Positions 3,747-10,340 of a stretch of DNA of 10,652 nt are shown here, in pieces (within the stretch, counting starts at the first letter, position 1; each line of letters begins with the position of its first letter). A program made the translations under genes and the position numbers. Location: IMG/VR virus record IMGVR_UViG_2671180884_000028, positions 1 through 10,652 of that record. One strand, written 5' to 3'. The notes beneath the pieces are model-generated. The model was given only the letters and a program-made list of their open reading frames with translations. It made no database searches and was not told the origin of the DNA. This DNA comes from a virus (taxonomy: Duplodnaviria > Heunggongvirae > Uroviricota > Caudoviricetes).

Positions 3747-4046
3747 ATGAAACTTAAATATTCTGGCTTAACTGCCAGTGGCAACACTCACCCTAAATTT
3801 ACGCGCGGTGATATTTACCGCGACCAGTACGGCGGCACGGTAATGATTAAGGGCGTGGCGGGACGGTGCGTAACTTACCGCCGTGAAGGTTACGAATATG
3901 ATTGCGTGATGCCTGTTTATCAGTTCCGGCGTGATTTTTCTCTGGTACAGACCGCGCCGCATAACGTGCCCACCAGCAACGCCAGAGCACGGGCAAACAT
4001 CCAGAAGCTGAAAACCATGATTAACGGATTCAGGGGTAAAAAATGA
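3747..4046 (+). CDS. Hypothetical protein (99 aa)
   Basis: ATG 3747 with GGAGAA at 3733-3738. Its stop overlaps the primase start (ATGA at 4043-4046), indicating translational coupling. Confidence 0.55.
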   Translation: MKLKYSGLTASGNTHPKFTRGDIYRDQYGGTVMIKGVAGRCVTYRREGYEYDCVMPVYQFRRDFSLVQTAPHNVPTSNARARANIQKLKTMINGFRGKK

Positions 4047-5797
4047 AACTGGCACCGAACGTAAAACAGCAGTCACGCGGCATAAAACACAAAGAAACAG
4101 AAGTCATTATTTTTGCGGGTAGTGATGCCTGGTCACACGCGAAACAATGGCAGGAACATGACGCGCGTATGGCCGGAGATAATGAGCCTCCTGTGTGGCT
4201 TGGGGAGCAGCAGTTATCAGAACTGGATAAGCTGCAAATTGTGCCGGAAGGCAGAAAATCCGTGCGCATATTCAGGGCCGGACATCTTGCACCAGTAATG
4301 ATCAAGGCGATTGGTCAAAAGCTGGCGGCGGCTGGTGTACAGGATGCAAATTTTTATCCTGAGGGTATGCACGGCAAGGAGGTGCAGAACTGGCGCGAAT
4401 ACCTGGCCCGTGAACGCCAGAATCTTTCTGATGGTCTGGTCATTGAGCTTCCGGTAAAGCAAAAGGCGCAACTTTCGCAGATGGCGGACAGTGAGCGCGC
4501 GCAGTTGCTTGTCGATCGCTTTGATGGCGTTTGCGTACATCCTGAAAGTGAAATCGTTCACGTATGGCGTGGCGGGGTATGGTGTCCGGTCAGCACAATG
4601 GAACTGAGCCGCGAAATGGTGGCGATCTATTCAGAGCACAGGGCCACTTTCAGCAAGCGCGTAATCAATAACGCCGTGGAAGCATTAAAAGTTATTGCCG
4701 AACCAATGGGCGAGCCGTCCGGCGATTTGTTGCCGTTCGCCAATGGTGCGCTTGACCTGAAAACAGGGGAATTTTCCCCGCACACGCCGGAGAACTGGAT
4801 CACCACGCACAACGGCATTGAATACACGCCACCAGCACCAGGGGAGAATATCCGCGACAACGCGCCAAACTTTCATAAATGGCTTGAGCACGCAGCCGGA
4901 AAAGACCCGCGCAAGATGATGCGTATATGTGCCGCGCTGTACATGATTATGGCGAACCGGTACGACTGGCAGATGTTTATTGAGGCCACCGGAGACGGCG
5001 GGAGCGGTAAAAGTACATTCACACACATAGCCAGCCTTCTGGCAGGGAAACAGAACACGGTAAGCGCTGAGATGACATCGCTTGATGATGCTGGTGGACG
5101 TGCGCAGGTTGTCGGGAGTCGTCTTATCGTCCTGGCAGACCAGCCGAAATATACAGGCGAAGGAACGGGCATCAAGAAAATCACGGGCGGCGACCCCGTG
5201 GAAATTAACCCGAAATATGAAAAGCGTTTCACGGCGGTAATCAGGGCGGTGGTGCTGGCGACCAATAACAATCCGATGATATTCACCGAACGGGCCGGAG
5301 GTGTGGCACGTCGTCGCGTGATTTTCCGTTTCGACAATATTGTTAGTGAGGCCGAAAAAGACAGGGAGCTACCGGAAAAAATTGCGGCTGAAATCCCCGT
5401 CATTATCCGCCGCTTGCTGGCGAACTTTACCGACCCTGAAAAGGCACGGGCTTTACTCATTGAGCAGCGTGACGGTGATGAAGCTCTGGCAATAAAGCAA
5501 CAGACGGATCCGGTTATTGAGTTTTGCCAGTTCCTGAATTTTCTGGAGGAAGCGCGCGGCCTGATGATGGGGGGCGGTGGCGATTCAGTGAAGTACACGA
5601 CCAGGAACAGCCTTTACCGCGTCTATCTGGCGTTTATGGCATACGCAGGCAGGAGCAAACCGCTAAACGTGGCTGAGTTCAGCAAGGCCATGAAGCCAGC
5701 GGCGAAAGTTTACGGGCATGAATATATTACGCGAAAAGTTAAGGGAGTAACGCAGACCAACGCAATTACAACAGACGATTGCGACGCGTTTTTATAA
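4043..5797 (+). CDS. Replication initiator: primase / SF3 helicase (P4 alpha-like / D5-family Pri-Rep protein)
   Basis: 584 aa. Walker A motif ATGDGGSGKST and Walker B-like RLIVLADQP in the C-terminal half. Size and layout match satellite primase-helicases. An iteron-rich origin lies immediately downstream. Confidence 0.85.
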   Translation: MKLAPNVKQQSRGIKHKETEVIIFAGSDAWSHAKQWQEHDARMAGDNEPPVWLGEQQLSELDKLQIVPEGRKSVRIFRAGHLAPVMIKAIGQKLAAAGVQDANFYPEGMHGKEVQNWREYLARERQNLSDGLVIELPVKQKAQLSQMADSERAQLLVDRFDGVCVHPESEIVHVWRGGVWCPVSTMELSREMVAIYSEHRATFSKRVINNAVEALKVIAEPMGEPSGDLLPFANGALDLKTGEFSPHTPENWITTHNGIEYTPPAPGENIRDNAPNFHKWLEHAAGKDPRKMMRICAALYMIMANRYDWQMFIEATGDGGSGKSTFTHIASLLAGKQNTVSAEMTSLDDAGGRAQVVGSRLIVLADQPKYTGEGTGIKKITGGDPVEINPKYEKRFTAVIRAVVLATNNNPMIFTERAGGVARRRVIFRFDNIVSEAEKDRELPEKIAAEIPVIIRRLLANFTDPEKARALLIEQRDGDEALAIKQQTDPVIEFCQFLNFLEEARGLMMGGGGDSVKYTTRNSLYRVYLAFMAYAGRSKPLNVAEFSKAMKPAAKVYGHEYITRKVKGVTQTNAITTDDCDAFL

Positions 5798-5810
5798 TTT
5801 TTTGTAAAAG

Positions 5811-6040
5811 CCCTCTACCCCATCTACCTGAATGAAATAAATACATATTATTCAACATGATAAGTGGGTAGAGGGCCAGGTAGAAGGCTAATAAAAGCTC
5901 TCTACCTCTTCTACCTGATTTTATCAGTTTCAGGTAGCAGGGTAGACGGTAGGTAGAGGAGCCCAAAAAGCTATCTACCCGCTGAAAGCCGCGCCATTAC
6001 TGACATGATGAGCATTCGGGTAGATGGGTAGAGGGGGGGA
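5811..6040. repeat. Iteron array / candidate origin of replication
   Basis: About 12 copies of a core TCTACC / GGTAGA motif arranged in clustered pairs in both orientations. Examples: CCCTCTACCCCATCTACCTGA (5811-5831), GGGTAGAGGGCCAGGTAGAAGG (5865-5886), CTCTCTACCTCTTCTACCTGA (5899-5919), AGGTAGCAGGGTAGACGGTAGGTAGAGGA (5932-5960), GGGTAGATGGGTAGAGGGG (6018-6036). An AT-rich stretch sits at 5831-5862. Confidence 0.6.
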
Positions 6041-6080
6041 GGCACAACTAAAAACTTTTTAAACGAGGGGGTGAAAATAA

Positions 6081-6395
6081 ATGCGCATACATCAAAATCA
6101 CTTAACAAACATGCCAGCCGAAAACATGAATCAGGGGCGACAAATGACCAAAATTCGCAGAGACAGAACAGAGCCAAAATATAAAGCGTTAGACATGACT
6201 GAGCATACCTTAAAGGTGGCAATCAGAACGATAGACCGCCACGCGGGGGAAGGATACGCGAAAGCACATCCCGACATGATAAGCGCATTCATGACCACGA
6301 CGGCGGCAAATTTTGCCACGCTGACAGAGCGGGAGATTGCGGAAGCTGAACAGGTGACAACCATCAACGTTAAAAACGTAGAGGTGGAATCATGA
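6081..6395 (+). CDS. Hypothetical protein (104 aa)
   Basis: ATG 6081 with RBS GAGGGGG (6065-6071). Stop overlaps the ssb start (ATGA at 6392-6395). Confidence 0.55.
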   Translation: MRIHQNHLTNMPAENMNQGRQMTKIRRDRTEPKYKALDMTEHTLKVAIRTIDRHAGEGYAKAHPDMISAFMTTTAANFATLTEREIAEAEQVTTINVKNVEVES

Positions 6396-6809
6396 CAGCA
6401 CAGATAGCGGCTTACGGGCGGCTGGTGGCTGGTGGCTGACCCACAGTTAAAGACCACCAGCAAGGGCACACAAATGACGATGGCGAGTATGGCGGTTCCC
6501 CTGACATGCAGCCAGGCTGATGACGGAACGGCGACGATGTGGTTATCCGTCCTGGCGTTTGGCAGACAGGCCGACGCACTGGCAAAACACCGCAAAGGCG
6601 AGCTGGTGAGCGTGGCGGGTAACATGCAGGTAAGCCAGTGGACAGGCCAGAACGGCGAAACGCGGCAGGGCTGGCAGGTTATCGCAGACAGTGTAATCAG
6701 TGCCCGTGCTGCCCGTCCTGGCGGGAGCAGACGTACAACCACAGGCACACAGGGTAATCAGCCACCAGCGGGAGGCGATGACCCTTACGGTGACGGTATT
6801 CCGTTCTGA
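6392..6809 (+). pseudogene. ssb: Single-stranded DNA-binding protein (SSB-like), disrupted by a frameshift
   Basis: ATG 6392 opens MTAQIAAYGRLVAGG and then hits TGA at 6437-6439. The rest of the protein continues in the +1 frame (ADPQLKTTSKGTQMTMASMAVPL...GWQVIADSVISA...DDPYGDGIPF) with the SSB acidic DIPF tail. A tandem 7-bp duplication GCTGGTG/GCTGGTG at 6421-6434 accounts for the shift; removing one copy restores ...GRLVADPQLK... in frame. Confidence 0.65.
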
Positions 6810-6819
6810 GGGGGTGACG

Positions 6820-7092
6820 ATGGTACATGACCGCATAGCGGAGGAACTCGAGGCAAAAGGCTTTTACCGGAGGGCGGCGGCGCGATGGGGTGAAGTTATG
6901 CAGCTGGTGGAGACAGACAAGGAACGGCATCAGGTTACGATGCGACGGCTGGAATGTTCCAGGAAGGCACAGAAGCCACCGGAGCCGCCGGATAACTTCG
7001 GAGACCTGAGAAAGGCAGTCGATCGCACTTATGCTGAAATGGGTATAGATGGTGTAAGCGATGAAATATGGCGTAATTACCCAGACAGCTAA
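6820..7092 (+). CDS. PerC-family transcriptional regulator-like protein (90 aa)
   Basis: ATG 6820 with RBS GAGGGGG (6808-6814). N-terminus MVHDRIAEELEAKGFYRRAAARWGEVMQL matches the conserved PerC/Pch N-terminal pattern as recalled. Confidence 0.55.
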   Translation: MVHDRIAEELEAKGFYRRAAARWGEVMQLVETDKERHQVTMRRLECSRKAQKPPEPPDNFGDLRKAVDRTYAEMGIDGVSDEIWRNYPDS

Positions 7093-7538: not shown

Positions 7539-8593
7539 TGGCAGGCAAAGCAATGGCACTTAACACTAACCAGCTTTTTACATACCTGAATCGCGGGGAT
7601 ATTGCGGAATTTAAATTCAGTCCGCTGTTTACCACGCTGTTTTTCCCGAACGTGGCGACATTCAGCACCCAAAACATCATGCTGGATACCCTGGACATTG
7701 AAGAAGTCACCATGTCGGCGTTTTGTTCGCCTATGGTTGGCAGTCAGGTACAGCGCGATAAAGGGTATGAAACCAGCACAATCAAACCTGGCTACATGAA
7801 GCCAAAGCACGAAATCGATCCAACAAAAACCATCATGCGCATGGCTGGAGAAGATCCGGCACAGCTTAACGACCCTACCTACCGCCGTATGCGCCTGATT
7901 ACTGGCAACATGCGCCGCCAGATAAACGCCATTAAAGCGCGCGTGGAATGGCTGGCGGTGAATGCGATAACGACCGGAAAAAACATCATTGAGGGCGAAG
8001 GCATAGAACGCTATGAAATCGACTGGAAAATACCGGAAAACTGCATCATAGAGCAGGCCAAGGGTAAAAAATGGTCCGAGCATGATAAAGATATTTACGA
8101 TCCAATCTATGACATCGAACTATACGCAGATCAGGCAGGTTGCCCCGCCAACGTCATGATTATGGGCGCTGAGGTATGGCGCACGTTACGCAGCTTTAAA
8201 AAATTCCGCGAACTGTACGATCTTTCCCGTGGTTCAGAATCCGCCGCAGAACTGGCCTGTAAAAACCTGGGTGAAGTAGTGAGCTTTAAAGGCTATCTGG
8301 GCGATATTGCCCTTATCGTCTATTCCGGCAAATACACTGACAGCGACGGTACCGAAAAATATTTCCTTGAGCCTGATTTGCTGGTCCTGGGTAACACCAA
8401 CAATAAAGGGCTGGTGGCCTATGGTGCGATTATGGATCAGGAAGCGGTAAGAACGGGCGCAACGCAAAACATGTTCTACCCGAAAAACTGGATTGAAGAC
8501 GGCGATCCGGCGATTGAGTACGTTCAGACGCACAGCGCACCGCAGCCGGTACCGGCAGATATTCGCAAATTTGTTACCGTCAAAATTGGTTAA
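7538..8593 (+). CDS. Major capsid protein, lambda gpE family (HK97 fold)
   Basis: 351 aa. Collinear with lambda gpE as recalled: EFKFSPLFTTLFF vs KFKFDPLFLRLFF; PGYMKPKHEIDP vs PGYVKPKHEVNP; GEDPAQLNDPTYRRMRLITGNMR vs DEDPQNLADPAYRRRRIIMQNMR; VSFKGYLGDIALIVYSGKY vs VSYKGMYGDVAIVVYSGQY; FYPKNWIEDGDPA vs RYPKNWVTTGDPA; C-terminus KFVTVKIG vs EFVSVQLA. Confidence 0.9.
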   Translation: MAGKAMALNTNQLFTYLNRGDIAEFKFSPLFTTLFFPNVATFSTQNIMLDTLDIEEVTMSAFCSPMVGSQVQRDKGYETSTIKPGYMKPKHEIDPTKTIMRMAGEDPAQLNDPTYRRMRLITGNMRRQINAIKARVEWLAVNAITTGKNIIEGEGIERYEIDWKIPENCIIEQAKGKKWSEHDKDIYDPIYDIELYADQAGCPANVMIMGAEVWRTLRSFKKFRELYDLSRGSESAAELACKNLGEVVSFKGYLGDIALIVYSGKYTDSDGTEKYFLEPDLLVLGNTNNKGLVAYGAIMDQEAVRTGATQNMFYPKNWIEDGDPAIEYVQTHSAPQPVPADIRKFVTVKIG

Positions 8594-9395: not shown

Positions 9396-9572
9396 ACGGG
9401 TCCTTTCCGGCATATGGACCCGTTACGGGGCGGCGACCTCGCGCGTTTTCGCTATTTATGAGCCTTTTCAGGGGGGTGGTGGTGGTTTTGTTGTTTGCTC
9501 TATCTTTATGAATGAAAAGGGAAAGATGCAAACAATACACCAACCTGAAGCAGTAATTAAGTTGGTGTATTA
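9396..9572 (+). other. cos site A (cosQ-like, cosN, divergent cosB), forward orientation, upstream of terS
   Basis: ACGGGTCCTTTCCGG...CCGTTACG followed by the exact lambda cohesive-end 12-mer GGGCGGCGACCT (9428-9439), then CGCGCGTTTTCGCTATTTATGAG, closely matching the lambda genome left end as recalled. The distal part lacks lambda R-site motifs and instead has inverted repeats AATACACCAAC / GTTGGTGTATT (9530-9540 / 9561-9571) and TGTTTGC / GCAAACA (9494-9500 / 9517-9523). Confidence 0.75.
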
Positions 9573-10115
9573 ATGAAATCGCACCTGATGAACAAAAAAA
9601 ACATGGCGAAAAGCTGCCGTGTAAGTGCGACAGCGTTCGACAAGTGGGGAGTGACTCCCGTTGAACGTAAAGGCCGTGAGGCGTTTTATGATGTTGCCAG
9701 CGTGATAGACAATAGGGTTAACAATGCAATTAGCCAGCTTACAAACGACAAAGGCGATATTGATGATGATGAACTCTTACGAGTCAGGATCAGATTACTG
9801 ACAGCACAGGCGGAGGCGCAGGAACTTAAAAACGAGCGCGATCGCGGTGACGTGATTGATACTGAGTTTTGCCTGTACGCGCTTTCAAAGCTGGCGAGTC
9901 AGATTTCATCAATCATGGACAGCCTCCCGCTTACTATGCAAAGGAGCTTCCCACAGATTACCCCCGCCATGCTGGACAGGCTTAAAAGGGAAGTGGTTAA
10001 AGCCTGTAATGCCAGTGCCAGAGTTGCCGACAACCTCCCACAGATACTGGCTGATTACTTGAAAGAAACAACCGGAAACGTACCGGAAAAGTTGCTACAG
10101 AAGAAAGGCAAGTAA
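9573..10115 (+). CDS. Terminase small subunit, lambda Nu1-like (TerS)
   Basis: 180 aa. Middle and C-terminal regions are collinear with lambda Nu1 as recalled: LTAQAEAQELKNERDRGDVIDTEFCLYALSKLASQISSIMDSLPLTMQRSFPQ vs LTRAQADAQELKNARDSAEVVETAFCTFVLSRIAGEIASILDGLPLSVQRRFPE. The N-terminal wHTH region is much more divergent. Alternative start ATG 9588 (MNKKNMAK) aligns with Nu1 MEVNKKQLA. No strong RBS at either start. Confidence 0.85.
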   Translation: MKSHLMNKKNMAKSCRVSATAFDKWGVTPVERKGREAFYDVASVIDNRVNNAISQLTNDKGDIDDDELLRVRIRLLTAQAEAQELKNERDRGDVIDTEFCLYALSKLASQISSIMDSLPLTMQRSFPQITPAMLDRLKREVVKACNASARVADNLPQILADYLKETTGNVPEKLLQKKGK

Positions 10116-10340
10116 CAGAAGCGCAATTATTGAACAAAAATGAGAAACGACATGAAAGCGTCATAAATCGCCATTTCAGATGATTACCGTGTCGTTTCTT
10201 TTTATTGTGTATCTATTTAAAAACAAATAGTTATGTTCGAGAAGTACCGACATGATTTTTCCAGAAAAATTTTCATAAACAGATAAAAACCGCGAGGTCG
10301 CCGCCCCGTAACGGGCCATAATTCCAGGAAGGACCCGACG
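10116..10340 (-). other. cos site B (lambda-like cosQ-cosN-cosB) in inverted orientation, downstream of terS
   Basis: On the minus strand: CGGGTCCTTCCTGGAATTATGGCCCGTTACG, then GGGCGGCGACCT (plus 10295-10306), then CGCGGTTTTTATCTGTTTATGAAAATTTTTCTGG, then R-site-like AAGAAACGACACGG and ATGTCGTTTCTCA (perfect 10-bp inverted repeat at plus 10152-10161 / 10190-10199). This is collinear with lambda cosN-I2-R3-R2 as recalled. A 25-bp core is a perfect inverted repeat of cos A (9419-9443 vs 10291-10315). Confidence 0.7.

Follow-up and report, generated by a model that had tools for sequence, protein, structure and literature searches.

The rep-proximal region and its repeats

The stretch of DNA that was analysed (the window, 10,652 bp) is a chromosomal island with all of its main genes on the plus strand and, judged from its sequence, is an EcCICFT073-type Gram-negative PICI. 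A tyrosine integrase gene (1-1242) and the gene of an AlpA-like regulator (1739-1945) are followed by small ORFs and a gene for a DUF4222 protein, and these by rep (4043-5797), which encodes an initiator-helicase of 584 residues with matches to Pfam D5_N, DUF5906 and Pox_D5 and to TIGR01613. The repeat array lies downstream of rep. After it come a gene for a 104-residue protein (6081-6395), which has no family match and is a hypothetical protein in relatives, and the genes for SSB, PerC (6820-7092), capsid protein E, decoration protein D, a connector and a Nu1-like small terminase (9573-10115). The ribosome-binding site of the 104-residue ORF, GAGGGGG, is located at 6065-6071. Both capsid protein E and decoration protein D are of the lambda type.

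The array is formed by copies of the core TCTACC (GGTAGA in the opposite orientation). When both strands are counted, the exact core occurs 12 times in the window, and 11 of the 12 copies fall within 5814-6032; the remaining one is a lone copy at 8475. Dinucleotide shuffling gives an expectation of 2.43 copies per 10,652 bp, with none of 200 shuffles reaching 12, and by proportion ~0.05 copies would be expected in the 219-bp stretch that holds the array. The total is 13 when GGTAGC at 5933 and GGTAGG at 5948, which are degenerate, are included. A preliminary description of this DNA had reported about a dozen cores immediately downstream of the primase-helicase gene (rep), and both the number and the position hold, the array starting (at 5814) 17 bp past the rep stop codon. 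The same description had placed clusters of alternating orientation around an AT-rich segment. The orientation blocks are indeed present (two forward, a 38-bp spacer, two reverse, two forward, four reverse, one forward, a 39-bp spacer and two reverse), as is the AT-rich spacer, but there is not one central segment. The array contains two modules of convergent iterons, here called module L (5814-5915) and module R (5933-6060), and only the spacer of the first is AT-rich.

The left arm of module L is iteron pair A (5814-5828, plus strand), with direct TCTACC copies at 5814 and 5823 whose core columns are at least 0.9 conserved in 48 alleles. The 38-bp spacer (5829-5866) is 79% A+T and is a candidate DNA-unwinding element; judged by nearest-neighbour energy, none of the 10,633 20-mers in the window is less stable than the one at 5834-5853 within it. 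P4 ori and all of the relatives have a spacer of 38-40 bp at this position too. The right arm, opposite pair A, is pair B (5867-5884, minus strand), with GGTAGA at 5867 and 5879, and pair C (5901-5915, plus strand), with TCTACC at 5901 and 5910, closes the module.

Module R opens with cluster D (5933-5957, minus strand), which combines the degenerate copies at 5933 and 5948 with GGTAGA at 5941 and 5952. The degenerate 5948 copy overlaps the one at 5952, and the 5941 and 5952 copies are the ones conserved in the 48 alleles. Cluster D is followed by the single iteron E (5974-5979, plus strand, TCTACC), conserved at 0.9 or above in the same alleles, and by a 39-bp spacer that ends at pair F (6019-6032, minus strand), with GGTAGA at 6019 and 6027. 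This spacer is G+C-rich and therefore an unlikely melting site. It holds a non-iteron block, CGCTGAAAGCCGCGCCATTACTG (5980-6003), which is also conserved at 0.9 or above in the 48 alleles and has a related counterpart, CTAAAAGCTGCGTCATTACTGG, in a TGTTCAC-type locus (L083). An A/T palindrome, CTAAAAACTTTTTAAAC (6048-6064), lies after pair F and is conserved in the 48 alleles. The longer non-iteron block that holds this palindrome, CTAAAAACTTTTTAAACGAGGGGGT (6048-6078), is conserved at 0.9 or above across the 48 origin alleles.

Several other scans of the region have been made. No DnaA box (with up to 2 mismatches), IHF consensus or GATC was found in 5751-6100, and the entire window has no match to an Rfam family. 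Folded as a single strand, 5798-6080 gives z = -4.5. A structured RNA or DNA element was considered here and rejected, because the value is explained by the inverted iterons, chiefly pair A against pair F.

The initiator protein and the repeats of its relatives

The Rep protein consists of an N-terminal region of ~150 residues, a D5_N and SF3 P-loop helicase core and a C-terminal winged helix. The helicase core matches that of SaPI5 PriRep5 (PDB 7OLA, E=3e-15). The C-terminal ~90 residues match the origin-binding domain of P4 alpha (1KA8) with E=8e-6 in a single-sequence phmmer search and with E=7e-12 when a profile made from the TCTACC-clade Reps alone is used. By this homology, the winged-helix domain at residues 488-576 (5504-5770, plus strand) is the predicted origin-binding domain and the putative reader of the iterons.

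The N-terminal region is different from what the annotation suggests. For residues 1-159 (4043-4520) Pfam gives no match, not even at E<=1; in the same comparison, both P4 alpha and the Morganella homologue show Zn_Ribbon_Prim and Toprim_3. In the alignment, the Zn-ribbon/Toprim segment is absent or degenerate in Rep. A single-sequence AlphaFold model of residues 1-165 has a mean pLDDT of 45, too low to be of use for a fold search. The term primase-helicase, which had been used for this protein, is therefore apt only for its helicase part, since no primase domain is detectable in the Pfam comparison or the alignment. To judge from these comparisons, the label “DNA primase” is an inherited annotation that comes from TIGR01613, which covers the helicase part. 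Because a primase domain is not detectable in Rep, the priming for this replicon is probably carried out by the host DnaG.

The regions downstream of rep have been collected from 93 Rep loci, 13 annotated and 80 from IMG/VR; a scan of the genome collection with the Rep protein alone gave 3 loci, and an alignment-based scan of viral contigs gave the 80. Among 48 unique TCTACC-type alleles, in which intergenic identity goes down to ~71%, the core columns of 5811-6040 have a conservation of 0.90 compared with 0.67 for the other columns (Mann-Whitney p=7e-12). The consensus of 783 iteron copies is [C/G][C/T][T/C]N-TCTACC-[T/C].

The type of the repeat tracks the C-terminal domain of Rep across the 93 loci. 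Reps with the motif SLYR[VL]Y[LM]AFM, down to 69% identity, all have 9-12 TCTACC and 0-1 TGTTCA in the 300 bp downstream, with the exception of a single locus that has just 149 bp of downstream sequence and 6 TCTACC. Reps with the P4-like motif YLYHAYL, which have 52-55% identity and are also found in Serratia, in Morganella and in the 16.5-kb element vB_KppS-Ant, are in every case followed by repeats of the TGTTCA type (8-11 copies) or, in four loci, by TGTATAC, and TCTACC is absent. In these relatives with a P4-like C-terminal domain, the TGTTCA-type repeats are arranged in a layout that matches that of the TCTACC loci. This covariation represents few independent switches, being essentially that of one TCTACC clade against P4-like clades. 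Together with the conservation of the cores and the position of the least stable 20-mer, it supports the earlier reading of the array as probable Rep-binding iterons with an unwinding element.

Finer differences are seen within the clades. In the ~300 bp that follow rep, four IMG/VR loci (L090-L093) carry (G)GTATAC(A/C) repeats, compared with GTGTTCAT in L087 and L094. Their winged helices are nearly identical to those of the TGTTCAT-type and differ mainly in the wing (KTRGV in place of RARGM), so these loci are possibly a natural specificity switch via very few residues. In 57 unique alleles, Rep residues 544-547 (5672-5683 in the window) track the base at position -2 of the iteron. With AEFS or ADFS at these residues the base is C (80-93%), and with NDFG or NEFG it is T (89-100%). 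This association may be a sign of fine specificity, or it may come only from linkage between the end of rep and the adjacent origin.

The iterons and Rep have been kept together across the integrase/att types ycfD-phoQ, yejM/tRNA-Pro and rcnR-thiM, and also in islands with unrelated capsid and terminase modules. This constancy in spite of module swaps argues against another reading of the repeats, in which they would be a cosB-like packaging signal for the Nu1-type small terminase or arm sites of the integrase. The lambda cosB and the attP arms are arrays of short oriented repeats, which the array of the window resembles, and the island encodes both a Nu1-like small terminase and a tyrosine integrase. 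However, exact copies of the lambda cosN 12-mer, GGGCGGCGACCT, are located elsewhere, at 9428-9439 (plus strand) and 10295-10306 (minus strand), where they flank the Nu1-like terminase gene. A packaging site in the array was rejected in favour of these positions, and we consider a packaging or integrase role for the repeats to be extremely improbable. The two cosN copies are probably the cos1 and cos2 sites that have been tested in EcCICFT073.

Comparison with the EcCICFT073, SaPI and P4 origins

EcCICFT073 is the prototype of the Gram-negative PICIs (PMC6092414), a group in which the DNA on the 3' side of the initiator gene is the origin of replication (Fillol-Salom et al. 2018, ISME J, PMC6092414). 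Its origin has been described as sets of iterons on either side of an AT-rich region, and a pri-ori fragment of it keeps a temperature-sensitive plasmid at the restrictive temperature (PMC6092414). The delta-pri construct fails, while the delta-ori construct is much reduced in colony number but not abolished (PMC6092414).

The window is closely related to this tested system. Its Rep is identical to EcCICFT073 Pri-Rep at 574 of 584 residues (98%), and the two islands share the gene order, an origin 17 bp past the rep stop codon, the TCTACC core with 11 exact copies, module R, the conserved block and the A/T palindrome. The cores of the EcCICFT073 intergenic region are at positions that match those of the window, although the intergenic identity is ~73% (~27% of positions differ). 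At the second position 5' of the core, the window has mostly C and the CFT073-type alleles have T. The islands also differ in their integrase and att site, which in the window are of the yejM/tRNA-Pro type, as in Nissle 1917, and in EcCICFT073 of the ycfD-phoQ type.

A difference in layout is found in the 21-bp segment 5877-5897, which contains the 5879 iteron and is reversed compared with the CFT073 and P4-type arrangement, so that one “>” becomes “<”. The order of the first six iterons is >><<>> in the window and >><>>> in CFT073. When 5877-5897 is turned round, the global alignment with CFT073 scores 73 instead of 45, and the pattern < 16 > 5 > 3 > is recovered. Since the score rises and the P4-like pattern returns, the window allele carries a 21-bp inversion that flips one iteron.

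The extent of the fragment that was tested has been obtained by placing the published primers on CFT073. The delta-ori clone ends at position 7000 of the CFT073 locus (L003), 4 bases past the rep stop codon, and the pri-ori clone ends ~20 bp into the next gene. As printed, the pri-ori reverse primer contains a 1-nt indel and for this reason has no placement even when 3 mismatches are allowed; its first 11 bases are unique at L003 7287. From these clone ends, the “ori” that was tested is the whole intergenic region, which corresponds to ~5802-6103 of the window. One of the published knockout primers contains GGTAGACAGGGTAGACAG, the first iteron pair, and the published deletion took out modules L and R together. 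The array was earlier said to lie where SaPI and PICI origins lie, and it is the counterpart of this region, in which the EcCICFT073 rep-ori fragment drives plasmid replication. The replication experiment that had been proposed for the window has in effect been done, for the sister allele. What the window holds is the origin of the EcCICFT073-type PICIs, as an allele with a slight rearrangement, and it counts as already known because it was published and functionally tested in 2018 in an island with a 98%-identical Rep.

These observations also bear on the proposal that AlpA, PerC or some other regulator of the island would use the repeats as operators to control the downstream ssb and morphogenesis genes. 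The array lies just 5' of the ribosome-binding site of the next gene, and the conserved non-iteron blocks at 5980-6003 and 6048-6078 could be regulatory. On the other hand, a scan of 5600-6300 found neither a sigma-70-like promoter nor a terminator, the repeat sequence follows the C-terminal domain of Rep from clade to clade, and several of the islands that keep the iterons are without PerC. In addition, the homologous EcCICFT073 fragment is needed for plasmid replication (PMC6092414). An operator array is improbable for these reasons, namely the lack of a promoter-like site in the scanned region, the tracking of Rep by the repeats and the need of the fragment for replication.

The origins of the SaPIs are located immediately 3' of rep and contain 6-12 short iterons (Qiao et al. 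2022, PMC9371898). They have a central AT-rich region with at least two oppositely pointing iterons on each side, and the SaPI Rep is a self-loading SF3 helicase in which a C-terminal winged helix reads the iterons (PMC9371898). The window shares this organization, with two iterons on each side of an AT-rich spacer (>> AT <<) and a Rep that combines a 7OLA-like core with a 1KA8-like C-terminal domain, which would read the iterons. The iteron sequences are unrelated, however, and the likeness of the Reps is confined to the helicase core. The SaPIs also do not have the second module with a G+C-rich spacer, and they differ from the window in host lineage and in the transcription layout of the island.

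Another parallel is found in P4, whose features are taken here from the GenBank annotation NC_001609. The P4 alpha protein has a homologous SF3 helicase core and a C-terminal origin-binding winged helix, and the P4 crr is directly downstream of the alpha gene, as the array of the window is downstream of rep. Read along the rep direction as strings of iterons and gaps, P4 ori is > 4 > 39 < 14 > 5 > 4 >, the left half of the CFT073 origin is > 3 > 40 < 16 > 5 > 3 >, and the left half of the window array is > 3 > 38 < 6 < 16 > 3 >. Each 120-bp unit of P4 crr is < 6 > 12 > 39 < 3 <, then AAAAAACTTTTTT, and the right half of the window array is < 5 < 16 > 39 < 2 <, then AAAAACTTTTT (6050-6060). Once the 21-bp inversion is allowed for, the spacing in the window matches that of the P4 ori and crr units. 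An A/T palindrome trails the last iteron pair both in each P4 crr repeat and in module R, and convergent iterons are separated by 38-41 bp in all modules and in all specificity classes examined. In spacing, the array thus looks like a P4-ori-like module L beside a single P4-crr-like module R.

The two systems also differ in several respects. The P4 type I repeat is TGTTCACC and the core of the window is TCTACC; the 300 bp downstream of the window rep contain 11 TCTACC and no TGTTCA. The preliminary description had taken the specificity to be unlike that of P4, which is correct, but this specificity is the same as in the published EcCICFT073 and is therefore not new. The CFT073-type extended iteron, CTGTCTACC, differs from that of P4, CTGTTCACC, by two central bases, which fits a divergence of the TCTACC and P4 repeats from a common ancestor. 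P4 ori and crr are ~4.7 kb apart, whereas the modules of the window are adjacent, 17 bp from each other and both within 250 bp. The crr is duplicated in P4 and its likeness in the window is single. P4 alpha has Zn-ribbon and Toprim primase domains that are not detectable in Rep, and the remainder of the island is unlike P4, with its lambda-type capsid E, decoration protein D and Nu1-like terminase.

The order of the modules is not fixed among the relatives. In L073-L076 and L083 it is reversed, so that the ori-like module follows the crr-like one after ~85 bp, and this is seen in both TCTACC-type and TGTTCAC-type lineages.

With modest confidence, we lean towards the view that the PICI origin of enterobacteria represents the bipartite P4 replicon, fused into a compact form. 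This origin would be composed of swappable ori-like and crr-like modules, with TCTACC having arisen through a change of two bases in the P4 type I repeat that is matched in the winged helix, with convergent iterons kept 38-41 bp apart across at least three specificities (TCTACC, TGTTCAC/T and TGTATAC), and with the primase lost in favour of host priming. The correspondence to P4 ori plus crr and the missing primase domain may be the sole points that go beyond the published description, and as a discovery the locus has little weight. The comparison with P4 provides a simple framework in which the specificity and incompatibility of origins can be tested among enterobacterial satellites. Its targets are the base and winged-helix changes that switch recognition, and the crr-like half as an enhancer or a copy-control site.

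The bipartite layout raises the question of whether module L alone (5814-5915) is the true origin, with module R (5933-6060) as a separate enhancer or as a Rep-titrating or handcuffing site for copy control and incompatibility. The spacing of module R and its trailing A/T palindrome are those of a P4 crr unit, its spacer is conserved and G+C-rich and not easily melted, and the P4 annotation treats ori and crr as two separate elements. The opposite order of the modules in L073, L075 and L083 further indicates that L and R are separable units. Against such a division, none of the relatives examined has just one module beside rep, and the published EcCICFT073 deletion removed both modules at once. 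A true origin confined to module L is a tentative possibility, somewhat less probable than its absence, and it is a refinement of the reading of 5814-6060 as the origin and does not contradict it.

Proposed initiation and occurrence of the island

On the evidence of its sequence and relatives, 5814-6060 is very probably the vegetative replication origin of an EcCICFT073-type PICI, presumably recognized by the initiator-helicase that is encoded immediately upstream. A scheme can be proposed in which we infer the contact of Rep with the iterons, the place of melting, the tasks of the two modules and the source of the primers. Induction by a helper phage would lead to the synthesis of Rep, whose C-terminal winged helix would bind the TCTACC(Y) iterons. 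The convergent sets, ~39 bp apart (>> 38 bp << in module L and > 39 bp << in module R), would hold Rep molecules facing each other, and Rep on the facing iterons of module L would melt the A+T-rich spacer at 5829-5866. Rep would then load itself as an SF3 hexamer with no separate loader, as has been proposed for the SaPI Reps (PMC9371898). Module R would correspond to the P4 crr and would probably provide extra Rep-binding capacity in cis, which would stimulate or stabilize initiation, and primers would probably be supplied by the host DnaG. The P4 crr is required in cis. For P4 alpha, Ziegelin et al. are said to have proposed self-loading as well, in 1993.

Sequences like this origin are found in 544 of 5,426 complete E. 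coli genomes (~10%). All are chromosomal and none is annotated, so that the origin stands unannotated beside a gene labelled “DNA primase”, and the present description is of use for annotation. An exact match to the window is absent among the complete E. coli genomes; the best full-length match has 91% coverage and 93% identity. The ori segment alone is 99.6-99.8% identical to that of E. coli ST130. The 93%-identical full-length match and the near-identical ST130 origin indicate that the island is a mosaic. In the ST130 island (L001 7343-9098) the origin is intact and the adjoining rep is annotated as frameshifted, and this island is probably unable to replicate by itself.

The ssb gene of the window has a 7-bp tandem duplication (GGCTGGT GGCTGGT; 6392-6440) that is absent from ST130, CFT073 and Nissle. 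The frame shifts after ~11 codons and reaches a stop at 6437-6439, and the remaining SSB frame is open only from GTG 6432 onwards. Because the duplication shifts the frame to an early stop, this copy probably encodes an SSB that is truncated or without activity.

The AT skew is strongly negative, reaching -0.45, in the interval (2000-2600) that separates the AlpA-like gene from the small-ORF cluster. A plus-strand ORF at 1900-2628 (242 residues) has no family match and is probably spurious. The minus-strand ORF at 2328-2600 weakly matches HicB, and its counterpart in Nissle and CFT073 is a YlcI/YnfO-family gene annotated on the minus strand.
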